Assembly (NCBI GenBank): GCA_039208735.1
Contig: JBCCQY010000214.1
Location: forward strand, 1 to 12,868
From: Myxococcota bacterium
GTDB taxonomy: Bacteria; Myxococcota_A; UBA796; GCA-2862545
Direction of reading: 5' to 3'
Length of the DNA: 12,868 nt
The notes under the pieces were generated by a model, which was given only the letters and a program-made list of their open reading frames with translations, made no database searches and was not told the origin of the DNA. The position numbers were made by a program, and so were the translations under genes. Positions 716-11,314 of this stretch are shown piece after piece. Each line of letters opens with the position of its first letter. Within the stretch, counting starts at the first letter, position 1.

Positions 716-1372
716 GTGTTCAATTTCCTGTTCAAGGACAAGGCGACCATGGTGGCCCGCGACCGTGCGCTACCCGGCCACGACACTCGCCCCTACGCGA
801 TTGGCAACGAGCACCATGTGCTGGGCACTCCCATCGAGGGTCCGTTTCCCGAGGGGATGCAGGTGGCTCAATTTGGGATGGGTTGTTTCTGGGGTGCGGA
901 GCGCAAATTCTGGCAGTTCGACGGGGTGTACAGCACTTCGGTGGGCTACGCGGCTGGCTACACGCCAAACCCGACCTACCAAGAGGTCTGCAGCGGCCAA
1001 ACGGGCCATAACGAAGTCGTGCAGGTCGTGTTCGACCCCACGAAGATTCGCTACGAACAGCTGCTGAAGACGTTCTGGGAGAACCACGACCCCACGCAGG
1101 GCATGCGCCAGGGCAATGACGTGGGCACTCAGTACCGGTCTGGGATTTACGTTCACTCCGACGAACAACGCAAGGTCGCCGAGGCGAGTCTGGCCATGTA
1201 CGCCAAGGAACTCGAGCGGGCGGGGCACGGGAGCATCACGACGGAAATTGTGGATGCCGGACCCTATTACTACGCCGAGGATTATCACCAGCAGTATCTC
1301 AGCAAGAACCCAAATGGATACTGCGGTTTAGGCGGAACTGGAGTCTCGTGTCCCGTCGGATTGGATGTCTGA
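716..1372 (+). CDS. msrA: Peptide-methionine (S)-S-oxide reductase MsrA
   Basis: Catalytic GCFWG motif, plus [37 protein letters not shown] and [29 protein letters not shown] (resolving cysteines). GTG at 716 is preceded by RBS GAGGAGG (705-711). Confidence 0.98.
1285..1372 (+). repeat. Resident msrA 3' tail (attL/attB-like copy; no upstream boxes)
   Basis: 88 bp TCACCAGCAGTATCTCAGCAAGAACCC...TTGGATGTCTGA. Similarity to the downstream copies starts exactly at TCACCAG. Confidence 0.9.
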
Positions 1373-1731
1373 ACACATCGAACAGCGTGCCAGAGTCCGC
1401 CACTACAGCCACGTTCCAGGCCATGACCTCTGACGAACTGTCCGAACACACCAGGGCTTCCACGATTCTCCAGCGCATCCATGGGCTCATGTCGATCTCG
1501 ACTTCGCTCTACCGAAGGGTTGGACCTGGGCGTTCAATGTCGTGAGGGGCCCGTTGACAGACGAGGCTCGAACAGCGCTATGGCCGTTCGTCACCACGAT
1601 CGTCTACCAGCGGTTCTTCGTGGTTCGAACCACGTGTCGTGATGAGCGCGCATTCTGCATCGAGATCGTGTCGCGGGCACGACGGAATTCGGCTTCCATG
1701 TCGTGGTCGTGCTGATCGGGGACTGATTTCC

Positions 1732-1776
1732 TTCGAGCAAATTGATCTCTCGATTCGAGCAGTTAATCTGCCCGAC
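1732..1776 (+). promoter_or_regulatory. Putative promoter/operator of the nucleotidyltransferase operon (possibly leaderless)
   Basis: Imperfect direct repeat TTCGAGCAAATTGATCT / TTCGAGCAGTTAATCT. TTGATC (1742-1747) is 16 bp from TAATCT (1764-1769), and ATG lies 7 nt further with no SD. The segment is also conserved in the relic at 9319-9360. Confidence 0.5.
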
Positions 1777-2346
1777 ATGTACAACAATGCCGAGCTGGAC
1801 GAGGCGCTCACAGCGCTGGGCGAAATCCTGGCAGACCGAGGTGAGACCTTCGACATCGTCGTGATCGGAGGTGGAGCCCTGTTGCTCCTCGGCCTGGTCG
1901 AACGCGCCACCAAGGACCTGGACGTGCTCGCCCGGATCGAAGGTGATGCTTGGGTTCGAGCCGAGCCGTTCCCGCCCGCACTCGAAGCCGCCGTCCATGA
2001 CGTCGCTGCCGCATTGGATCTGTCGGACGACTGGCTGAACCCAGGCCCCACCGATCTCCTCGACTTCGGACTGCCGAGCGGGTTCGCAGACCGCGTCTTC
2101 TCGGGCCTCACGGTCCGACTGGCATCGCGTGATGATCAAGTCGCGTTCAAGCTCTACGCCGCCGCAGATCAGTGGCCGAGCGAGAGCCGTCATCTGTCCG
2201 ATCTTCGAGCGCTCGCTCCGACCCGCGAGGAGTTGTTGGCCGCCGCCCGCTGGTGCCGTACGCACGATCCGTCGAGCGGGTTTCGCAATGTACTCCTGCT
2301 GCCCGTGCTCACGGCCCTTGGGGTCGAGGATGCCGACGATGTCTAG
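1777..2346 (+). CDS. Nucleotidyltransferase, DUF6036/AbiEii-like (putative TA component)
   Basis: VVIGGGALLLLGLVERATKDLDVL (GG..A...R.T.D.D pol-beta-type NTase motif), WLNPGP and KLYAAAD. Start chosen at ATG 1777 after the putative -10. Confidence 0.8.
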   Translation: MYNNAELDEALTALGEILADRGETFDIVVIGGGALLLLGLVERATKDLDVLARIEGDAWVRAEPFPPALEAAVHDVAAALDLSDDWLNPGPTDLLDFGLPSGFADRVFSGLTVRLASRDDQVAFKLYAAADQWPSESRHLSDLRALAPTREELLAAARWCRTHDPSSGFRNVLLLPVLTALGVEDADDV

Positions 2347-3277
2347 CGAGCGCATTCGAGCGGCCGTACGCGACCTCTGGTGGAGCGCCTTCACGGAGCT
2401 GGGCGTTCCGGGCGTCGTCCGTCATCACCAGGATGTAGCTATCGACCCGGAGCCGCTGGTCGTCACGGCTCCCGGCATCTTCGGTCTCGATGCGCGTCTG
2501 CGCGATCAGATTTATGCGTGGTGTGCGACCCACGGATCGAAGCTCTCCGCCAGCCGGCTACAGGGCCTGGCCCGCCAGCTCGGCGCCGGAGCGCAATCCG
2601 ACTTTGCGAGCTTCGCGGCGACGCTACGAGCAGAGGCCGACGTCAGGTGGTCGGTCGCAGGCGAGCCCTGGCCCCACCCTCCTGAGGTCCGTCCGCCGCG
2701 ACTGCCACTCGAACGACCTGCGCTGATCAGACTGCGGCTCCGGGCGCTCTGTGGCGTGGGAGCCCGAGCTGACGTACTGTGCGAGCTGCTGCCGAAGGGC
2801 GACTGGGTGCGAGCCGCTGATCTGGCTTCGGAGGGCTACTCCAAGCGCTCCATCGCGAACATTCTCGCGGAGCTGGCCGCCGCCAACATCGCTCGGAGCA
2901 GGCCCGTGGGGAACGCGATCGTGTATCGGCTGGGGCATGCCGATCTCCTCGGGCAGCTCGTCGGACCGCGCCCCTCTGCGTTTCCGAGGTGGCGCCAGGT
3001 GGTCGCTCTCGCGCTGGAGGCCACCCGCTTGGCGGAGCTGGAGGCCAAGCCGGCGACAGTGCGACGGGTCGAAGCGACGCGTGTCCGCGAGAACCTCGCC
3101 CAGACGGCGTCCGAGCTGGGAGTGGCCGAACCGCCTCCGACTCGCGGCCATCCCGATGGATGGGCAAGGCTCGTCGAGTGGTGCGCAGACCAAGTGGAGA
3201 CCTTTGCATGTGGAGCCTCGGTCGCCATGCAGCCAACATCGTCGTCGGTCGAGCCCGGACAGGAAGAACGAGCCTGA
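2339..3277 (+). CDS. Conserved HTH-containing protein, partner of the nucleotidyltransferase (putative antitoxin/regulator)
   Basis: Overlaps the NTase stop (ATGTCTAG) and has GAGG upstream. LWWSAFTELGV...IDPEPL N-terminus; central wHTH-like segment RLRALCGVGARADVLCELL...RAADLASEGYSKRSIANILAELAAANIARSRPVGNAIVYRL. Confidence 0.7.
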   Translation: MSSERIRAAVRDLWWSAFTELGVPGVVRHHQDVAIDPEPLVVTAPGIFGLDARLRDQIYAWCATHGSKLSASRLQGLARQLGAGAQSDFASFAATLRAEADVRWSVAGEPWPHPPEVRPPRLPLERPALIRLRLRALCGVGARADVLCELLPKGDWVRAADLASEGYSKRSIANILAELAAANIARSRPVGNAIVYRLGHADLLGQLVGPRPSAFPRWRQVVALALEATRLAELEAKPATVRRVEATRVRENLAQTASELGVAEPPPTRGHPDGWARLVEWCADQVETFACGASVAMQPTSSSVEPGQEERA

Positions 3278-3284
3278 CGACGCT

Positions 3285-3442
3285 TTGGACACTTCGCCGG
3301 GTTCCTTGGACACTTCGCTGGATAGTCGGCCTTAAACCTGGCCCAGGAGTACTGTCACCAGCAGCATCTCAGCAAGAACCCAAATGGATACTGCGGTTTG
3401 GGCGGAACTGGAGTCTCGTGTCCGGTGGGGTTGGACACTTGA
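3285..3442 (+). repeat. Composite att-like site R1 (two boxes + core + msrA tail)
   Basis: TTGGACACTTCGC at 3285 and 3306; core GTACTG-TCACCAG-CAGCAT with TCACCAG at 3355; tail encodes [28 protein letters not shown]. Confidence 0.95.
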
Positions 3443-3455
3443 CTGACGCTGCCGC

Positions 3456-3643
3456 CTACGTGGGGCCTGCTTTCGTATGGTGCGCCTGATCTGGGTGACT
3501 TGGGAGAGCCGGGTACTTTCGCTCCAGCTGCCCAGCCTCGAGGGTTGTGACGGTTCGGGAAAGCGCGGAGGCGATTTGCTGGGGAGTCCGACATGGTCCT
3601 GAACAGAGACTCAGGATCGCAGCCTCGACCTCCGAGCGCGGCG
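3456..3643 (-). pseudogene. C-terminal remnant of a wHTH-tailed ATP-binding/AlbA-type or Fic-like protein
   Basis: RTPRSEVEAAILSLCSGPCRTPQQIASALSRTVTTLEAGQLERKYPALPSHPDQAHHT resembles the 'IL.LC....T..EIA..L.R....L.R.YP..P.HP.Q.Y' C-terminus. It has no start of its own and is fused to another relic. Confidence 0.55.
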
Positions 3644-3819
3644 TCCGGATCCTCACCGATAGAGCGCACCTGTCCAGAAGCTCTTTGGTCCTCGTCTCCA
3701 GCTCGAAAGCCCACAACGCGTTCGGCCCTCCCCAGTTGTTGGGGTCGGTGACCGAACCGCCCGGCGCGATCCATCCCCCGGGATCTTGCACCGCGTACGA
3801 CTCGATGAAGTCGTCACTG
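3644..3819 (-). pseudogene. Relic of the 3' end of the hypothetical gene at 7579-8313
   Basis: Aligns with 7570-7747 (SDDFIE.YAVQ.PGGW.APGGSVTDPNNWGGP.ALWAFELET). It is 176 vs 178 bp, so a 2-bp deletion frameshifts it, and the 5' part is absent. Confidence 0.9.
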
Positions 3820-3834
3820 TCACGTCGTGGGAAC

Positions 3835-4257
3835 TCACTCCCCTGCATCCAGGTCCTTGGCAAGGACCAAACCGTGTGGCACGTAGCTCGGCACCCAGGA
3901 GTCCTCTGACAACAGTGGAAGTCCCTCGCTCAGGGCCTGTGCGACGAGCATCCGATCAAAGGGGTCCCGATGACCTCCCTCTGGATAAGGCAGCACCGCC
4001 ACGCGCTCGGCATGCGCTCGCCTCACATCGAGAATCGTGTAGCCACGGGCTGCAACCTCACGCGCGAAGAAGTCGGCTGGGGAGACGGGGAGCGGAAGCT
4101 TCCCGATCCCGTACTTGATGCTGATCTCCCACAGTGAGGCAACGCTCACGACCAAAACGTTCCTGCGATCTCGAAATAGGGCCCGGGTGGCGCCTCGAAG
4201 CCGAGGATCCCCAATCGCCGCCCATAGCAGAACGTGCGTATCGAGGAGGATTCTCAT
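3835..4257 (-). CDS. vapC: VapC-family PIN domain toxin (Sll0205-like)
   Basis: MRILLDTHVLLW...VSVASLWEISIKYGIGKL...HRDPFDRMLVAQAL.EGLPLLSED; 4-bp ATGA overlap with the upstream antitoxin. Confidence 0.93.
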   Translation of the reverse strand: MRILLDTHVLLWAAIGDPRLRGATRALFRDRRNVLVVSVASLWEISIKYGIGKLPLPVSPADFFAREVAARGYTILDVRRAHAERVAVLPYPEGGHRDPFDRMLVAQALSEGLPLLSEDSWVPSYVPHGLVLAKDLDAGE

Positions 4258-4508
4258 CGATAGTCCGCGAAGTCGTCGAGAGGATCATCCCAGTCCTCCG
4301 GGAGAACGAAAGACCACCCGCCAATAGGACGATGAGCATCCTCGGCGGACGAATGGGCAGGCCCCTCGACCAGTCGTCGAGCCTGTGCAACGAGCGTGTC
4401 CGTGACGAACGCAGTCAGTGTCGAGTTGGTGAGTCGGGCGGCACGCTCGATCAGCTCCTTCTTTTCCGGCGAGATCCGCAGCTCCAGACGCGCGGTAGAG
4501 CCTGGCAC
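4254..4508 (-). CDS. Antitoxin: DUF1778-like RHH N-terminus with an acidic VapB-type tail
   Basis: TARLELRISPEKKELIERAARLTNSTLTAFV is DUF1778/TacA-like; the C-terminus is RPIGGWSFVLPEDWDDPLDDFADYR. GTG start with RBS AAGGAGG. Confidence 0.85.
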   Translation of the reverse strand: MPGSTARLELRISPEKKELIERAARLTNSTLTAFVTDTLVAQARRLVEGPAHSSAEDAHRPIGGWSFVLPEDWDDPLDDFADYR

Positions 4509-4517
4509 GAGGCCTCC

Positions 4518-4542
4518 TTGTACGGCAATGCCAGCCGTACAA
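4518..4542. promoter_or_regulatory. Palindromic operator upstream of the antitoxin
   Basis: Perfect inverted repeat TTGTACGGC-N7-GCCGTACAA abutting the RBS. Resembles the TGTACGG...CCGTACA operators of KacA/AtaR-type DUF1778 RHH antitoxins. Confidence 0.8.
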
Positions 4543-4589
4543 TCAGGCTAGCACGCTCGACGGCAGGCGGGAAGGGCCGGGAATCGGTC

Positions 4590-4747
4590 TTGGACACTTC
4601 GCCAGATCTCTTAGACACTTCGCTCGATAGTATGGTTCAAAACTGACTTGGGAATACTGTCACCAGCAGTATCTAAGCAAAAACCCAAACGGCTACTGTG
4701 GTTTGGGCGGAACCGGTGTATCCTGCCCAGTAGGTCTGGACGTCTGA
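4590..4747 (+). repeat. Composite att-like site R2
   Basis: Boxes at 4590 and 4611; perfect core ATACTG-TCACCAG-CAGTAT (4654-4672). The tail encodes [28 protein letters not shown], identical in protein to MsrA despite 16 nucleotide differences. Confidence 0.95.
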
Positions 4748-4798
4748 CGGCGACGACCGAGAACCGCAGGAGCTGCGACCTGAGAGAGGAGTGAGCGC

Positions 4799-5299
4799 GT
4801 GAATCCGGCAACCAAGGTTGTCTTGCGCTACATCTTTCCATCCGAGGTCGAAGTCGCGTCGGATGTCACCATCGTCCGCTCGGACTCCCATCTGCCCGCC
4901 TGGCTGCGCGACGCCAACCCTGGCGGGTGGCATCCCATCGAGTGGGACGAGCTGCTCGATGGACGCCTCGGTCCCTGGGCAATGGTCGTGGATTGCGAGC
5001 GAGTCATTTCGATCGCCCACACGCCGGTTCCCATGACCGACGAGGTCGCAGAGTGCGGCGTATGGACCAAGCCCGGCTCGCGCGGTCGGGGCCATGCAAC
5101 GGCGAGCGCCTCGATGTGGGCCGAGGTCCTTCGACCGTCGGGTCGGCGCCTCGTCTATCGAACGACCGAAGACAACCTTTCCTCTCGGCGCGTCGCCGAG
5201 AGGCTACGGCTGCGTCTCGTCAGCCGCACCGAGGAGCCTCGCGACGACCACGTCAGCAACCTGCACCCGCTCAGCTCGGTCCGGCAGGTCAGCGAGTAG
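4799..5299 (+). CDS. GNAT family N-acetyltransferase
   Basis: AECGVWTKPGSRGRGHATA (acetyl-CoA binding motif A) and YRTTEDNLSSRRVAERL (motif B). GAGGAG lies upstream of the GTG. Confidence 0.85.
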   Translation: MNPATKVVLRYIFPSEVEVASDVTIVRSDSHLPAWLRDANPGGWHPIEWDELLDGRLGPWAMVVDCERVISIAHTPVPMTDEVAECGVWTKPGSRGRGHATASASMWAEVLRPSGRRLVYRTTEDNLSSRRVAERLRLRLVSRTEEPRDDHVSNLHPLSSVRQVSE

Positions 5300-5377
5300 C
5301 GCCTCGACTGCCGACGCCCTGACGACGATCGCGCGTACCCGCACGCCGCGCTACGCTCGGGCTTGTGGAGGCCAGAG

Positions 5378-5596
5378 ATGGTGGACTTAATCATCGTCGA
5401 CCCTGACATCATGCGCGGCAAGCCCGTAGTCGGCGGCACACGCGTGACCGTCGAGTACATCCTCGACCAGCTCGGGCACGGGCACTCGATCGACGAACTC
5501 CTCCAGGGGCACCCCCGGCTGACCCGGGAAGGCATCGAGGCTGCAGTTCAGTACGCCATCGACGCGCTGCGCATGGAACGCGTGGTTGCACGTTGA
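5378..5596 (+). CDS. DUF433 domain antitoxin-like protein
   Basis: IIVDPDIMRGKPVVGGTRVTVEYILDQLGHGHSIDELLQGHPRLTREGIEAAVQYA; RBS GGAGG at 5367-5371. Confidence 0.93.
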   Translation: MVDLIIVDPDIMRGKPVVGGTRVTVEYILDQLGHGHSIDELLQGHPRLTREGIEAAVQYAIDALRMERVVAR

Positions 5597-5955
5597 ACAT
5601 TGTCGCCGACGAGAACCTGCACCGGGGCATCGCGGATCGCCTTACCACCGACGGACACGACGTCGTTCATGTTGGCGACTTGTCACCAGCGATCACAGAC
5701 ATCGAAGTTCTGCGTCTGACCGTGGAGCGAGAAGCGTTGATGATCACCAACGACCTCGACTTCGGAGAGCTGGTGTTTCGTGGAGCTGCGAGCCATGCGG
5801 GTGTCCTGTTGGTTCGCTTGGCTGACATGGCGTTCGAGGACCAAGCGGAGTTGGTCTCGACGACAGTTACCGATCACGGAGAGGCCCTCGAAGGCGCGTT
5901 CTCCGTTCTGACCGCGCGCAAGCTGCGAATTCGCGGTGGGTCAGCCGGATCATGA
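5593..5955 (+). CDS. DUF5615 family PIN-like protein (VapC45-like toxin)
   Basis: IVADENL...GHDVVHV...DIEVLRL...LMITNDLDFGELVF...HAGVLLVRL; TTG start overlaps the DUF433 stop. Confidence 0.9.
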   Translation: MNIVADENLHRGIADRLTTDGHDVVHVGDLSPAITDIEVLRLTVEREALMITNDLDFGELVFRGAASHAGVLLVRLADMAFEDQAELVSTTVTDHGEALEGAFSVLTARKLRIRGGSAGS

Positions 5956-5981
5956 GCCTTGGGCCGCGCAGTGATGCCGGT

Positions 5982-6067
5982 TTGGACACTTCGCCGGACC
6001 CCTTAGACACTTCGCCAGATAGCGGCCTTCGAACCTGCACCAGGAAAACTGACACCAGCAGTCTAAG
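5982..6067 (+). repeat. Composite att-like site R3 (msrA tail deleted)
   Basis: Boxes at 5982 and 6003; degenerate core AAACTG-ACACCAG-CAGTCT at +70 (6052). Similarity to msrA ends after about 15 bp. Confidence 0.88.
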
Positions 6068-6116
6068 GACTTCCACCTGGAGCGTTCGGGAAGAGCCTGG
6101 AAGCGAGCATCGGCTG

Positions 6117-7532
6117 TTACGTCACCTTGACTTGCCAAACCGCGCGTGGGTCCTTGGTTGAATTCCCCACCCATTCGATTAGACCCACCTCTTGCAACGC
6201 CCGGAGCCTCCGCAACAGGGTCGGCCTGGAGACGCCCGTCTGCTCCACGAGAGCCCCCGTACCGGCCGGGCCTTCTCGGAGCACCCGGAGGAGGTCGCGC
6301 TCTTCTCGGGGAAGTCGCCCCTCCAGTTCGACGTCGATGGGCTCGGAGGACAGGACCAGGCGCACGGAACCGGCCGTCTGGTAGTAGCGGGGCTCCACGA
6401 GGCCCGCGAGACGCATCTCCTCGAAGATGCGTCGAATGCCCTCCCCCAACTCCTGTCCGAAATCGAGATCAGCGCAGACACGGGCGATCCTTGGATTTCG
6501 AGCGAAGCGCGAGATCCCGACCGGATCGTTGAGGTCCACGAGCCCGGGAAACCTCCCCGGACTCTCGACTTCGATCCGGTCATCGAAGATCTCGATCCGG
6601 ATGTGGTCGCCCGCTACGCTGTAGGCGCGGTGAACAACGGCATTGACGAGCCCTTCCAACCACGCGTCGCGAGGGACCACCCCGATGGAGTCGAAGCGGC
6701 CGGCGGTCGTCATGGCCCGACGCGTCGGAACGAGTGCTTCGATCGCTCGCCGGGCGTCTTCGAGCATCTTCGGGATCGGCCCCTCGAAGTGCCGATCCTC
6801 AGCGAGTTGCTGCCGACTGCCTGCGCCTCGCTCTCGACCACGGTACCGGAGCACCCTGACGCGAGCCTCGGGTAGGAGCCGCTGGGGATGGTTCCCGAAG
6901 AGGAGCCAGCCGGCCACGGTGACCCGTCCGTCGGACTTGAGGAGTCCCCGCGCTACGAGGAGCCGCCTCGCATCTGGATGGCCGACGGCCTCGGCATACT
7001 CGCGGAGCAGCTCGATCGAGAGATCCGAGAATGCCGCTCCGTCGATCGGGTTGACCTCGAAGCTCGCCTGTCCCTTCTCGTAGAGCAGCTCCAGACGTTG
7101 CGAAAAGGTCAGGCGCCGGTTCTCGTCACCGACACGCAGCAAGACGTCGTCCTTGACGGTCGCATGAACCTGGGTGCTGGGGTCGACCCTGACGACAACG
7201 AGGTGATTGGCCTGCCCCTTCGCATCGATACACGCGATCTTCGAGAAGCTGGAACGGAGAGGAGGAACCGCGAAGTCGAACGTCGCCTGACGCCACGCGT
7301 TCTCTGCCTGTGCTCCGACGTGGTCCGTTCCTTCGATACGCCCCGAGGATAAGCCGATGACGAGGTGTCCTCCCTCGGCATTGGCCATCGCGATCGCTGC
7401 TTCGGCCAGCTCTCGGGCACCGATGCGAGCACTCTTGCGATCGAACCACTGGTTCTCGGTGAGAGAGAGGGTGGCGAGGCCGACTTCATCCGGTGGAAGG
7501 GCGAGGGCTCGGCGGACGCGGGCGGTGGACAT
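6117..7532 (-). CDS. Schlafen/AlbA_2 domain + HATPase_c_4 (RecG-C-like) + C-terminal wHTH protein
   Basis: ENQWFDRKS...AMANAEGGHLVIG (AlbA_2); EGLVNAVVHRAYS...IEIFDDRIEVESPG...RNPRIA...QELGEGIRRI (HATPase_c_4); GVSRPTLLRRLRALQEVGLIEWVG (wHTH). Confidence 0.92.
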   Translation of the reverse strand: MSTARVRRALALPPDEVGLATLSLTENQWFDRKSARIGARELAEAAIAMANAEGGHLVIGLSSGRIEGTDHVGAQAENAWRQATFDFAVPPLRSSFSKIACIDAKGQANHLVVVRVDPSTQVHATVKDDVLLRVGDENRRLTFSQRLELLYEKGQASFEVNPIDGAAFSDLSIELLREYAEAVGHPDARRLLVARGLLKSDGRVTVAGWLLFGNHPQRLLPEARVRVLRYRGRERGAGSRQQLAEDRHFEGPIPKMLEDARRAIEALVPTRRAMTTAGRFDSIGVVPRDAWLEGLVNAVVHRAYSVAGDHIRIEIFDDRIEVESPGRFPGLVDLNDPVGISRFARNPRIARVCADLDFGQELGEGIRRIFEEMRLAGLVEPRYYQTAGSVRLVLSSEPIDVELEGRLPREERDLLRVLREGPAGTGALVEQTGVSRPTLLRRLRALQEVGLIEWVGNSTKDPRAVWQVKVT

Positions 7533-7536
7533 GAAA

Positions 7537-7559
7537 CTACTCTAACAATTTTAGAGTAG
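7537..7559. promoter_or_regulatory. Palindromic operator/promoter immediately upstream of the AlbA_2 gene
   Basis: Perfect inverted repeat CTACTCTAA-N5-TTAGAGTAG in an AT-rich patch, 4 bp from the ATG at 7532; no SD. Confidence 0.7.
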
Positions 7560-7578
7560 CGATAGCATATCCGGATCC

Positions 7579-8313
7579 TCACCGATAGAGCGCTCCTGTC
7601 CAGAAGCGCTCTCCGGTCTTTGTCTCCAGCTCGAAAGCCCACAACGCGTCCGGCCCTCCCCAGTTGTTGGGGTCGGTGACCGAACCGCCCGGAGCGAGCC
7701 ATCCCCCAGGACCCTGCACCGCGTACCACTCGATGAAGTCGTCACTGGTGAAGAACCGATCGGTGAAGTTGTTCAGCTCGAACAGGTCACCTTTCGTGCG
7801 AAAGTAGCCGCCGAACCTCACGACACGGAGGGGTTGGCCGTGATGGTTGGTCAGCGTGGTCGAGCAATACGATCGATCCGCTGGACGAGCGCCAGAGCGG
7901 CCAAAGTCGACGCTGACCCTGCTTGCTCCGGCCAGAACCTCGGATTGCGACAATCGGTGTTCGACCGGCTCTCCTTCGAGCGGTTGAGATCGGGCGCCCG
8001 GCGGAAGGTGACCGATCGTCCTCGGCTCGAAGTCGACCACGACTTGGTTCCCGTAGGTCGCGACGTACGCTCGAACGTCGAGAAGCACAGCTGTGTCGCC
8101 ATCGGCGAGTCGCAGGTGGCCGGCGTCGAAGCCGTGCGCCTCGACCCAGTTTGGTGGGTCGTCCGAGACCGACACCCAGAGCTTATACCTCCCAATCTCA
8201 CCGGTGTAGTAGGGGAGCCTCGGCAATACCGCAGGCGAGCGGAGGAGCACGAGAGCGCCGAGCCCTCCAACGACGAGGATGCCCAACGCTACCACCGCCA
8301 GAACCGGCTTCAT
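7579..8313 (-). CDS. Hypothetical protein with N-terminal membrane anchor/signal
   Basis: MKPVLAVVALGILVVGGLGALVLLR hydrophobic N-terminus; GAGG upstream of ATG 8313. Coding status is supported by a diverged homologous relic at 3644-3819. Confidence 0.75.
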   Translation of the reverse strand: MKPVLAVVALGILVVGGLGALVLLRSPAVLPRLPYYTGEIGRYKLWVSVSDDPPNWVEAHGFDAGHLRLADGDTAVLLDVRAYVATYGNQVVVDFEPRTIGHLPPGARSQPLEGEPVEHRLSQSEVLAGASRVSVDFGRSGARPADRSYCSTTLTNHHGQPLRVVRFGGYFRTKGDLFELNNFTDRFFTSDDFIEWYAVQGPGGWLAPGGSVTDPNNWGGPDALWAFELETKTGERFWTGALYR

Positions 8314-8443
8314 CCAGGCCTCACATCCGTTGTCCACCGGCATCATGGCATTGGACCCCGTTAACGTCGAGGTGAGCACCGCCACCACCTCGATCGGGCG
8401 CAGCCAACAAGAACATCACGCGATCAGTGACCACGGAGTGTGA

Positions 8444-8601
8444 TTGGACACTTCGCCACATTCCTTGGACACTTCGCTAGAAAGTCGAGCTTGAAACTGG
8501 TTTGGGAATACTGTCACCAGCCGTATCTCAGCAAGAACCCAAATGGATACTGCGGTTTGGGCGGAACCGGAGTCTCCTGTCCGGTCGGGTTGGACGTCTA
8601 A
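8444..8601 (+). repeat. Composite att-like site R4
   Basis: Boxes at 8444 and 8465; core ATACTG-TCACCAG-CCGTAT with TCACCAG at 8514; tail encodes [28 protein letters not shown] (TAA stop). Confidence 0.95.
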
Positions 8602-8658
8602 TCGATCCCAGATCGCGTACTCGTGTGCAACACCTTCCTTCCAGGGGCGTCGAGGCCC

Positions 8659-9156
8659 TCAGGTTCCAAGCTGGGTCGATGGCACCCCGAACAACATCCG
8701 CCGTTCGACTGGATCGACCTTCAACACGACAACCTCGACGGCCTCTGCGACACGAGGCAGGTCGGAGCCTTCCGGCAGCCTGGAGATGTGAAGGAGACCC
8801 TCCATCTCCTCCTCCGGGCTCACAATCGCGCCGTAGGGCGCCACGAGAGTCACCCGACCACGCACCTTCGAGCCTTCGGCGTAGCGCTCCACGGCGTCCG
8901 CCCACGGATCTGGCCGTAGTTGCCGAGTACCGAGCAAGACTCTCCGGTCGTCGACCAGCACCTTGAGAACCACGGTCAGCACTTGGTCGCCGATCTCGAA
9001 GCAGTCCTTGGGGGACGGATTCCTGGTTCCCCAGCTCATTTCGTGAAGTGGGACCAGCCCCGTGAACTCACCCAGATCGATGAACAACCCGAAGTCGGTG
9101 ACTCGGACCACAGTGCTCGCGATTCGATCCCCGGGTCGCCATTGCGGCACTCTCAT
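8659..9156 (-). CDS. Small protein with two S1 RNA-binding domains (RpsA-like repeats)
   Basis: GDRIASTVVRVTDFGLFIDLGEFTGLVPLHEMSW...GDQVLTVVLKV...RRVLLGTRQLRPDPW...GSKVRGRVTLVAPYGAIV...EGLLHISRL...VEVVVLKVDPVERRMLFG. Confidence 0.88.
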   Translation of the reverse strand: MRVPQWRPGDRIASTVVRVTDFGLFIDLGEFTGLVPLHEMSWGTRNPSPKDCFEIGDQVLTVVLKVLVDDRRVLLGTRQLRPDPWADAVERYAEGSKVRGRVTLVAPYGAIVSPEEEMEGLLHISRLPEGSDLPRVAEAVEVVVLKVDPVERRMLFGVPSTQLGT

Positions 9157-9318
9157 CGCCTCGTGGGAGGATTGCCGCGCCCACGCCGGACCAGCGCACC
9201 ATCTTCAACGAGACGCTTCAACAGGTGCGATGCCTGGTCCCGACCGAGGTGGCAGAGGCGAACCACATCACGACGGAGAATGCCGCCATGCCCGGGAACC
9301 AGAGGCAGAGGTTCGTCT

Positions 9319-10047
9319 GAGCAGATTGATTTCCCGATTCGAGCAGTTGATCTGCTCGATATCTACGGTAACGCGGAACTGGCACAGGTTCCTCGGTCTG
9401 GTCGAGCGCACCACCAAGGACCTTGACGTTCTCGCCCGGATCGAGGGCCAACTGATCTCCTCGACTTCGGCCTTCCGAGCGGGTTCGCCGAACGAGTCGA
9501 GTCACGCGTCTTCGCGGGCCTCACGGTCCGACTCGCATCGCGATGATCAGCTTGCAGGAGCGAAGCGACGAAAGCTGACCGCGTAGGCCTGCAGGCGCGG
9601 AGCGCCGAAGGCCAGCGGTGAGCAGACTCGCGCAAGCGTTGCTTGCTGCTGATCAAGTTGCCTTCAAGCTCTACGCCGCCGCGGATCAGTGGCCGAGCGA
9701 GAGTCAGCACCTCTCCGATCTTCGAACCCTCACGCCGACTCGCGCGGAGCTGTTGACTGCCGCCCGCTGTTGCCGATCGCACGATCCGTCGAGCGAGTTT
9801 CGCGACGTACTCCTACTACTGGTGCTTGCTTCTCTTGGCGTTGAGGACACGCATTCACCGAGTTGGGCGTTCCTGGCGTGATCCGCCATCATCAGGAGGT
9901 GGCCATCGACCCAGAGCCCTTGATCGTCACAGCTCCAGGCGTATTCGGCCTCGGAGCCGAGGCCGATGTCCGTTGGTCGGTCGCAGGGGAGCCCTGGTCT
10001 CATCCTCTCGAGGTCCGTCCGCCGCGATTGCCGCTCGAACGGCCTGC
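9319..10047 (+). pseudogene. Decayed relic of the nucleotidyltransferase + HTH operon (homologous to ~1735-2721)
   Basis: Collinear blocks: promoter, LGLVERTTKDLDVLARIEG, PTDLLDFGLPSGFA, DQVAFKLYAAADQWPSES..., ELGVPGVIRHHQEVAIDPEPL, AEADVRWSVAGEPW...LPLERPA. Start ATG is changed to ATC, with several internal deletions and one insertion. Confidence 0.92.
9544..9655. mobile_element. Miniature structured insertion (REP/MITE-like) with duplicated TGATCA
   Basis: 106 bp extra relative to the intact NTase gene. TGATCA occurs at 9544-9549 and 9650-9655, the ends read TGATCAGC...GCTGATCA, and there are two internal 28-nt hairpin modules. Confidence 0.7.
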
Positions 10048-10122
10048 ACGGTACCTCGATCGGCATGCTGCCCGCAGCCTCATGGGTCGATCCCGGGTGA
10101 CAGGAACTGGGCTGATGTGCCT

Positions 10123-10246
10123 CTGGACACTTCGTCAGATTCCTTAGACGCTTCGCTCGATAGTCAAGCAAGAACCTGGCCCACAAACCTTGCCACCAGC
10201 AATGTCTTCAGCAAGAACCCAAGTGGATACTTCGGTTTAGGCGGAA
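10123..10246 (+). repeat. Composite att-like site R5 (degenerate)
   Basis: Boxes CTGGACACTTCGT (10123) and TTAGACGCTTCGC (10144); degenerate core at 10193; msrA tail has a 1-bp insertion and substitutions and is truncated after GGCGGAA. Confidence 0.88.
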
Positions 10247-10252
10247 TCTGTT

Positions 10253-10372
10253 TTCCGCCTGGAGCGTTCGGGAAGAGCCTGGAAGCGAGCATTGGCTGTC
10301 ATGTCACCTTGACTTGCCAAACCGCGCGTGGGTCGTTGGTTGGAAAGTCGCCCCTCCAGCTCGACGTCGATG
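10253..10372 (-). pseudogene. Relic of the 3' end and flank of the AlbA_2 gene
   Basis: 10253-10342 matches 6071-6160, and 10343-10372 matches 6310-6339 (about 149 bp deleted between the blocks). Confidence 0.9.
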
Positions 10373-10489: not shown

Positions 10490-11314
10490 ATGGCACGTTT
10501 TTGGATTCTGAATCTTGGTATTTCAGGGCTCCTGTTTACCGCCTGTGCGGGCGACGACAAGACCGATTCTGGGATCGAAGCGGACGCCGATGCCGATGCT
10601 GATGCCGACGCCGACGCGGATGCAGACACCGACGCCGACACCGACGCCGACACCGATGCCGACGCGTCGATTCGCGTCCTCCATCTGGCTCCGGATGTCC
10701 CTGACGTCCAGGTCTTGGCGAACGACGCGACGCCCGCCGCCGTGCCCTCGCTTGCCTTCAAGGACGGCACGGACTACATCGCGCTGCCCGCTGGAACGTA
10801 CAACTTCAAGGTTGCGCTCGCCGACAGCACCGACCCGGTCAAGGAAGCGGCGTTGAACGAAGATGTTCCGCTCGAGGCAGGCATGAGCTACGTCGCGGTG
10901 GCTCACGGCTATTTGGGAGATCCCAAGCCCGGCAACCTCGTTCTCACGCCGTTCGTCGAGAATCGTGACGGAATCAAGGCCGGCAATACCCGTCTGCACA
11001 TCGTTCACGCGGCTTCGCGGACGCCCCAGGTCGATATCTGGAACGTGACCGATCCGAAGAACCCGAGCCCCATCCTCGAGAATGTCGACTACGGCATGGA
11101 AGGCGACGTCGACATCCCGAACGCTGCGGTCGAGGTCGGCTTCGACGCGGACGACGATGGCGTTCCGGACCTCGTCTACAGCGTTCCCGCCCTCGGCGAT
11201 GGCGCGTACATCAGTGTGTACGCGGTGAACCGCGACGCCAAGGCCACTCCCTTCGACGTGGACCTCGTCGCGCACCTCGAAGACGGCACCACGGCCGTTC
11301 TGACCCCCAACTGA
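10490..11314 (+). CDS. Lipoprotein with acidic DA/DT repeat linker and DUF4397-type domains
   Basis: RBS GAGGAG; signal peptide MARFWILNLGISGLLFTAC (lipobox); IRVLHLAPDVPDVQVLAN...YIALPAGTYNFKV and RLHIVHAASRTPQVDIW. Confidence 0.85.
   Translation: MARFWILNLGISGLLFTACAGDDKTDSGIEADADADADADADADADTDADTDADTDADASIRVLHLAPDVPDVQVLANDATPAAVPSLAFKDGTDYIALPAGTYNFKVALADSTDPVKEAALNEDVPLEAGMSYVAVAHGYLGDPKPGNLVLTPFVENRDGIKAGNTRLHIVHAASRTPQVDIWNVTDPKNPSPILENVDYGMEGDVDIPNAAVEVGFDADDDGVPDLVYSVPALGDGAYISVYAVNRDAKATPFDVDLVAHLEDGTTAVLTPN
10580..10666 (+). repeat. Coding hexamer repeat (GAYGCN/GACACC) encoding ADADADADADADADADTDADTDADTDADA
   Basis: Directly visible low-complexity tandem repeat within the lipoprotein gene. 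Confidence 0.9.

Follow-up and report, generated by a model that had tools for sequence, protein, structure and literature searches.

Tandem units behind msrA in a Myxococcota bacterium probably record repeated insertion by a lambda-type tyrosine integrase

RESULTS

Five small units follow msrA

The window, by which we mean the whole stretch of DNA analyzed (12,868 bp), is an entire contig, G000:C214, from a Myxococcota bacterium. It carries msrA (PMSR; positions 719 to 1372, plus strand; Pfam PF01625, E value of 3e-64), behind which lie five units of 1.3 to 2.5 kb and a remnant, with cargo genes on both strands. Unit 1 (1285 to 3354) encodes an AbiEii-like nucleotidyltransferase (1777 to 2346) and a 313-amino-acid partner without a Pfam match (2336 to 3277); a shorter version of this unit lies behind msrA in G002. 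Unit 2 (3355 to 4659) holds a gene fragment that is 92% like the second gene of unit 4, a PIN-domain toxin gene (3835 to 4257, minus strand), and a TacA1-like antitoxin gene (4254 to 4508, minus strand), and its right end with the arm-like repeats described below recurs in G001:C159 at 77% identity. Unit 3 (4660 to 6051) encodes a GNAT acetyltransferase (4799 to 5299), a DUF433 protein (5363 to 5596), and a DUF5615 PIN-like protein (5593 to 5955). Unit 4 (6052 to 8513) encodes an AlbA_2/RecG-like protein (6117 to 7532, minus strand) and a 269-amino-acid protein without a Pfam match (7579 to 8388, minus strand). Unit 5 (8514 to 10192) encodes an S1-domain protein (8659 to 9156, minus strand) and contains decayed copies of the unit 1 genes (9312 to 10047). 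A PADLOC search with 11 proteins returned only AbiEii (weak) and partial matches of the RecG-like protein.

These units have relatives elsewhere. Most of unit 4 (window positions 6061 to 8282) is 95.4% identical over 2,222 bp to a unit located directly behind msrA of G001, while the yebC-msrA regions of the two genomes are 77.5% identical. An integrase-free 2.2-kb unit is shared by G022 and G079, which belong to two genera, at 87% identity over 2,230 bp from the core onward, and cargo recurs across families at 67 to 85% identity. The cargo of other arrays includes LysR-enzyme pairs, HTH-AbiEii, DNA alkylation repair, and HipBA genes. G171 has four junctions, one of which bounds a 2.0-kb HipBA unit that has an arm site at each end and encodes no integrase; the integrase of this genome lies behind its msrA, on a contig separate from the HipBA array.

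TacA1-like antitoxins pair with GNAT toxins. In the window, the TacA1-like antitoxin gene (4254 to 4508) is coupled to the PIN gene, and the GNAT gene (4799 to 5299) lies across junction R2 in the next unit. Two repeats were also observed. At 9544 to 9654, within the decayed nucleotidyltransferase copy, a TGATCA site is occupied by a hairpin-forming repeat of 110 bp; the repeat has 109 BLAST matches (pieces included) in G000 at 78 to 100% identity, some of them in tandem, shows very high depth in sequencing run X1, and looks like a MITE or REP-type element. At 10553 to 10666, a DUF4397 protein gene contains a DADADT-type low-complexity repeat that is common across the loci of this lineage.

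Five junctions share one layout around a putative attachment core

The units meet at five plus-strand junctions, R1 to R5, with a common layout: two direct repeats, TTRGACACTTCG, with a 21-bp period, about 30 further bases, the core, and finally a duplicate msrA 3' end. All of the other junctions align with R2, and the arm-like repeats lie about 44 and 65 bases to the left of the core in all five. At R2, the repeats (4589 to 4600 and 4610 to 4621; predicted integrase arm-binding sites) stand at a distance from the core that is identical in other genomes, and the msrA 3' copy (4660 to 4747) runs in frame from HQQY to GLDV and the stop codon. R1 (3284 to 3438; repeats at 3284 to 3295 and 3305 to 3316) and R4 (8443 to 8601; repeats at 8443 to 8454 and 8464 to 8475) likewise retain an intact msrA copy. 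R3 (5981 to 6102; repeats at 5981 to 5992 and 6002 to 6013) has lost its msrA copy and half of an inverted left-end arm site, and 6061 to 6102 is a residual element left end. R5 (10122 to 10372; repeats at 10122 to 10133 and 10143 to 10154) is decayed and holds a damaged msrA copy and a remnant of a unit-4-type start. The terminus of the msrA copy in R1 (3430 to 3441) reads TTGGACACTTGA, which matches the arm motif at 12 bits; the same place in R0, R2, and R4 reads TTGGATGTCT or TGGACGTCT.

The R2 core (4654 to 4672, plus strand), ATACTG-TCACCAG-CAGTAT, is a perfect 6-7-6 inverted repeat with its left half at 4654 to 4659, a central 7-mer at 4660 to 4666, and its right half at 4667 to 4672. 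The corresponding sequence in resident msrA is GGATTA-TCACCAG-CAGTAT (1279 to 1297, plus strand), in which the 7-mer spans the final base of the Tyr codon and the His and Gln codons of YHQQY. A preliminary description of this DNA noted the R2 sequence and the presence of variants in the other four junctions; these read GTACTG-TCACCAG-CAGCAT in R1 (7-mer at 3355 to 3361), AAACTG-ACACCAG-CAGTCT in R3 (6052 to 6058), ATACTG-TCACCAG-CCGTAT in R4 (8514 to 8520), and ACCTTG-CCACCAG-CAATGT in R5 (10193 to 10199). That description had also placed the start of identity with msrA at the first base of the 7-mer; this is so for R1, R2, and R4, where identity is uninterrupted from that base, and fails for R3 and R5, which mismatch there.

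The palindrome by itself is at chance level: the window contains seven perfect 6-7-6 repeats against 5.85 expected per 12,868 bp (from the first 40 of 288 contigs). The case for an attachment site rests on its context. The paired upstream repeat has four exact matches compared to none in 200 shuffles, and all five genome-wide matches to a looser version of the paired motif fall on this contig.

Related junctions conserve a dyad set one base off the 7-mer

We searched for the msrA-end pattern in related genomes. Within the order, 23 of 154 genomes, among them the present one, have at least two copies, some of which are true second genes, and a class-wide pattern matched 8 of 182 genomes. Comparison of loci from the other 22 multicopy genomes and three regions from the class-wide pattern yielded 29 junctions like R1 to R5 in 18 other genomes. 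With R1 to R5, the curated set comprises 34 junctions in 19 genomes and 18 resident msrA genes; given their relatedness, the genomes are not independent samples. The set leaves out nonnative sites without the arm motif (two in G142 and those in G144, G052, and G151), a contig-end duplicate (L131), a site with 8 upstream bases (L153), a G022 site with about 30 msrA-like upstream bases (L135), and G001:C159, whose msrA copy is deleted. In the wider genome contigs, the paired arm motif was found in eight stretches, one of them a true junction and the others tandem repeats or coding matches, and the exact window-type core with an msrA end was found in one.

The arm-like sites have a consensus of about YKTGGVCACTTC. 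At a score of at least 8, the proximal site is present in 27 and the distal site in 30 of the 34 junctions, compared to 0 of 18 resident msrA genes; these counts are partly circular, as the arm matrix was built on 27 of the junctions and junctions were chosen partly by the motif. Seven sites were added after the matrix was made, of which six have a scorable proximal site (12 to 17 bits) and one is cut by a contig end.

The 6-bp inverted half-sites that had been proposed are not supported as the conserved feature. Counting outward from the 7-mer, complementary pairs occur in 7, 31, 33, 22, 12, and 15 of the 34 junctions, and six-pair symmetry is perfect in R2 only. The dyad axis at the midpoint of the 7-mer is conserved. 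As judged from the aligned junctions, the symmetry that persists is ACT-n-[7]-c-AGT, which stands one base away from the 7-mer (in R2, ACT at 4656 to 4658 and AGT at 4668 to 4670), and R2 is its most symmetric member rather than its type.

The placement of the left edge of host-derived sequence at base 1 of the 7-mer fared better. Base 1, a synonymous T or C of the Tyr codon, agrees with the msrA of the same genome in 28 of 32 junctions, compared to 17.1 when genomes are shuffled (P = 0.0003), a test that excludes two junctions of G147, a genome without a resident msrA; without the present genome the match is 25 of 27 (P = 0.0015). The four junctions that differ are R3, R5, one in G008, and one in G171. 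Immediately to the left, the base preceding the 7-mer is A in 18 of 18 msrA genes and in 16 of 34 junctions. The other 18 junctions depart from A and are not host derived at that base, and 13 of them retain ACT. A synonymous control position outside the 7-mer matches the genome's own msrA in 24 of 32 junctions (16.3 when shuffled; P = 0.05). Because this control is nearly as high, the base 1 match indicates host-derived sequence and not a requirement for homology.

Together, these comparisons support a transition from element to host sequence at the left edge of the 7-mer, with the qualification that it could sit further left in the 16 junctions where an A precedes the 7-mer. Sequence alone does not reveal the right edge because the msrA copy continues rightward. 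At base 7, 5 of 32 junctions disagree with the msrA of their own genome, and a spacer of 5, 7, or 9 bp fits the same axis, with mean symmetries of 0.64, 0.59, and 0.56, respectively. An overlap of 7 bp is suggested by analogy with other arm-binding integrases; in the accessible text of a study of mv4 Int, the heterobivalent integrases characterized so far generally use a 7-bp overlap, and that of mv4 was revised from 8 to 7 (10.1101/2023.11.06.565760).

Two kinds of divergent site were observed. In G001:C159 (L034, 126 to 223), the arm repeats and left half-core are fused directly to a left-end stretch, the msrA copy having been deleted at a CACC microhomology, much like R3. The msrA-end copies without an arm motif in G142, G144, G052, and G151 (L148, L149, L151, L157, and L200) suggest other elements at the same or a nearby site.

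Related bacteria encode a tyrosine-integrase clade just behind msrA

A tyrosine recombinase gene (PF00589) was first seen directly 3' of msrA at two loci, and this clade is now found there in five genomes and one metagenome contig. An integrase search of the 154 genomes matched 50 at an E value of 1e-15 or better; in the best three of these 50 (G130, G087, and G126), the integrase lies about 170 to 200 bases behind the msrA motif. G061 has a truncated copy behind msrA, and the integrases of G171 and G176, both from another order, also follow msrA. The single metagenome match, found with no msrA criterion applied, follows msrA as well. Phylogenetic analysis of 36 proteins placed the six msrA-adjacent integrases in one clade of eight with 100/100 support. 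Together with the arm-like repeats at a fixed distance from the core, these neighbors bear out the earlier assignment of the R2 core to a tyrosine-integrase site.

Two of the eight clade members are not beside msrA. One of them, in G064, keeps the inverted-plus-direct motif pair before its integrase, which indicates that the motif follows the enzyme and not msrA. At this locus (L197; G064:C83, about 14140 to 15490), the integrase and motif pair lie beside the 5' end of another gene, and this integrase may represent a retargeted branch.

The catalytic residues R245, K272, H334, R337, H360, and Y369 are invariant in 17 sequences. Profile matches place lambda Int and XerA as the nearest solved relatives, and a Foldseek search returned lambda Int as the top match at about 20% identity, with the Tn1549 integrase just behind; the integron integrase 2a3v headed the VIA list, inside a tie of tyrosine recombinases. 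The N-terminal 80 residues are modeled as a sheet plus a helix, with four strands and a helix in residues 12 to 76; a wide fold search with this N terminus alone returned nothing above a Z score of 3.6 (single-sequence model; pLDDT of 67). One integrase homolog is labeled as coming from a Myxococcota bacterium. Viral contigs yielded two distant homologs (32 to 33%), both outside the msrA clade. A second, unrelated PF00589 recombinase was observed a few kilobases inside the elements of G130 (L146, 14033 to 15874) and G126 (L142, 8425 to 9945).

Searches of G000 (92.7% complete) with two proteins and the family profile detected no member of this integrase family, which counts against the main reading presented below. 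This genome has eight other PF00589 matches, none of them on this contig, and no recombinase was detected among the 17 window proteins scanned.

Complete elements are large, and window units appear decayed

Integrase-bearing left ends carry two arm sites rightward of the core, an inverted one 90 to 105 bases away and a direct one about 150 bases away. This set is present in G130, G087, G061, G171, and G176, and a shifted set is present in G126 and the metagenome contig. Window positions 6061 to 6102 align with these left ends. No inverted left-end arm site was scored at R0, R1, R2, or R4 in the window, and the window units therefore look decayed; the left-end arm sites are retained in G001, where the inverted one precedes the unit-4-like unit, and in G171. 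In G128:C133, 22.8 kb separate the inside of the integrase gene from the junction, a span with DUF3854, helicase, and DUF499/DUF1156 genes, indicating that complete elements are far larger than the small units. We found no relaxase or conjugation gene in the scanned parts of complete elements, and no excisionase gene or host-factor site was identified.

Among 12 sequencing runs, assembled contigs from X1 to X4, X6, and X9 were compared with the window, and contigs of five runs were inspected for joints. Contigs from X1, which may be the source run, bridge R2 and R3 without differences. In X2, five contigs enter position 6061 from an msrA end, and three exit at 6102 into other sequence. In X3, contigs carry a different right end followed by an intact msrA end and left-end site joined to unit 4, and that left end is also joined to the toxin-antitoxin cargo of unit 3. 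The X2 and X3 joints come from other strains or species in the same study, were taken at a likeness cutoff of 88, and follow the author's reading of the joint tables; they show reordering of units with intact left ends, not circles. Among the joints listed for the five runs, all from assembled contigs, there was no circle, empty site, or core-to-core excision joint.

DISCUSSION

Positions 4654 to 4672 likely form the core of a lambda-type tyrosine-integrase attachment junction, produced by an integrase that inserts DNA in the YHQQY codons of msrA; comparison of sequences predicts that strand exchange starts at the left edge of TCACCAG. With good confidence, we propose that integrases of this clade have inserted repeatedly and site-specifically at the msrA core, that each insertion restored the gene and moved the existing units away from it, and that the internal junctions became hybrids. 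An incoming circle would carry arm repeats, the core, and a replacement msrA 3' end and would recombine with the core in intact msrA, restoring the gene and shifting earlier units downstream. Because earlier units would be pushed away from msrA, each internal junction would combine the right end of one unit with the left end of the next, and toxin-antitoxin and enzyme cassettes could pile up without the gene being broken. Resident msrA would now be of the attL type, with host sequence to the left of the core and a replacement 3' end to the right. The integrase may read the ACT..AGT dyad and exchange strands across 7 bp, as other arm-binding integrases do. Units of 1.3 to 2.5 kb may be stripped derivatives that either depend for movement on an integrase acting in trans or travel with a neighboring complete element; those in the window, mostly without a left-end arm site, are probably fixed scars. 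More tentatively, and as something we hold to be possible rather than probable, there could be a class-wide, integron-like pool, based on lambda-type chemistry, in which 1- to 2.5-kb units with only arm sites, a core, and an msrA end circulate between genera and families and enter msrA singly through an integrase acting in trans; the resulting arrays of toxin-antitoxin and defense cassettes would need neither attC nor a resident integrase.

Other explanations differ in how much of this scheme they change. The same integrase and site could operate with an overlap of 5 or 9 bp or, as with Tn916- and CTnDOT-type integrases, require only the left part of the overlap to match; the Tn1549 integrase stands just behind lambda Int in the fold search. 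The shared axis of the three spacers, with symmetry highest at 5 bp, allows other lengths, base 7 matches the genome's own msrA no more often than in shuffled genomes (27 of 32 compared to 27.7), and one G171 array has both T and C at base 1. However, such mismatches can be later synonymous drift, and the abrupt shift from the base preceding the 7-mer to base 1 fits a cut at that point. Characterized heterobivalent integrases are generally of the 7-bp kind in the accessible part of the mv4 study (10.1101/2023.11.06.565760), and we regard a different overlap rule as unlikely. A larger departure is that the units are remnants of large islands decaying in place after loss of their integrase and never mobile at their small size, with homologous recombination between the 88-bp msrA copies reshuffling the arrays. 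The 22.8-kb span in G128:C133, the truncated integrase behind G061 msrA, the left-end deletions and decayed gene copies of the window units, and the failure to find an integrase in G000 all agree with this idea, which leaves the origin of the core undisputed. It sits poorly with an integrase-free unit that starts at the core in two genera (G022 and G079), with a unit 4 that is 95% identical between species with 77% flanks, with a 2-kb unit in G171 that retains all of its arm sites, and with several X2 and X3 contigs that join one intact left end to different cargo; we consider decay in place as the whole explanation quite improbable.

If the repeats were attC-like sites recombined as folded single strands, the cassette size and the cargo of toxin-antitoxin pairs and GNAT genes would find a ready parallel in integron arrays, as would the position of 2a3v at the head of the VIA list, within its tie of tyrosine recombinases. 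Yet R1, R2, and R4 fold no better than shuffles (z scores of −0.37, 0.41, 0.51, and −0.21 for four stretches), no Rfam match was obtained, the repeats consist of direct arm repeats plus a coding msrA copy with cargo on both strands, and there is no intI (the 17 window proteins scanned include no recombinase, and the contig has no PF00589 match), making an integron-type system very improbable. Finally, the inverted repeat might be a coincidence of msrA codons without a role, with something else setting the junction edge. The chance-level frequency of perfect 6-7-6 repeats and the occurrence of ACT at the corresponding position of 7 of the 18 resident msrA genes are what coincidence would predict. 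It is nonetheless scarcely credible, given that the complementary pair of C opposite G is kept in 33 of 34 junctions compared to 9 of 18 msrA genes and that ACT persists in 13 of the 18 junctions that are not host derived there.

We regard the attachment core as real, and both lambda-type chemistry and tandem accretion are already known. We found no description in the literature of an integrase entering the coding end of msrA or of this clade, and supplementary tables of island surveys could list msrA; a Streptococcus prophage has been placed between yesN and msrA in the accessible text of one report (PMC8115907). The system offers a testable integrase-site pair (enzyme, arm motif, core, and target) for an uncultured lineage, the natural core variants across 19 genomes amount to a free mutational scan of the site, and msrA is a protein-coding hotspot that island searches centered on tRNA genes would miss.

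As far as the accessible account of mv4 Int and lambda Int goes (10.1101/2023.11.06.565760), the msrA system resembles both in its tyrosine recombinase with an N-terminal extension, its imperfect inverted core around a short center, its arm-like repeats on both element ends, and its bare target without arms. It differs in that the target lies inside a protein-coding 3' end that the element replaces, and in having a distinct arm motif (about YKTGGVCACTTC; putative arm sites) and a distinct integrase clade with about 20% identity to lambda Int. The tandem accretion of ICEs, IMEs, and CIMEs, as covered by the available sections of PMC5704250, likewise restores the gene end and admits new elements at the gene-holding att site, and decayed, integrase-less CIMEs retain att sites and accumulate as tandem arrays whose internal sites are chimeric. 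In the window, as in CIMEs, five tandem junctions stand at a gene end with no recombinase; the left-end arm sites are mostly lost, and no complete element lies beside the units there. Unlike those cases, the target is msrA, and units of 1 to 2.5 kb, shared between genera, form arrays of up to five or six. The ssrA islands of Dehalococcoides, in the portion of PMC3146451 consulted, provide another parallel, with numerous tandem islands following a single conserved gene, each ending in a gene-end copy with a conserved motif just upstream, and many without an integration module; they involve a serine recombinase, a tmRNA gene, and a 20-bp repeat. In the msrA arrays, the enzyme is instead a tyrosine integrase, the gene end is replaced in frame by 88 bp of coding sequence, and the units are much smaller.

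Integrons are arrays of small cassettes rich in toxin-antitoxin pairs, in which new units enter beside a fixed site. Unlike integrons, the msrA arrays have no folded attC and no resident intI, and each unit has arm repeats and an msrA copy. If the small units do move in trans, these arrays would be a convergent alternative to integrons and a place to seek new defense and toxin-antitoxin genes.
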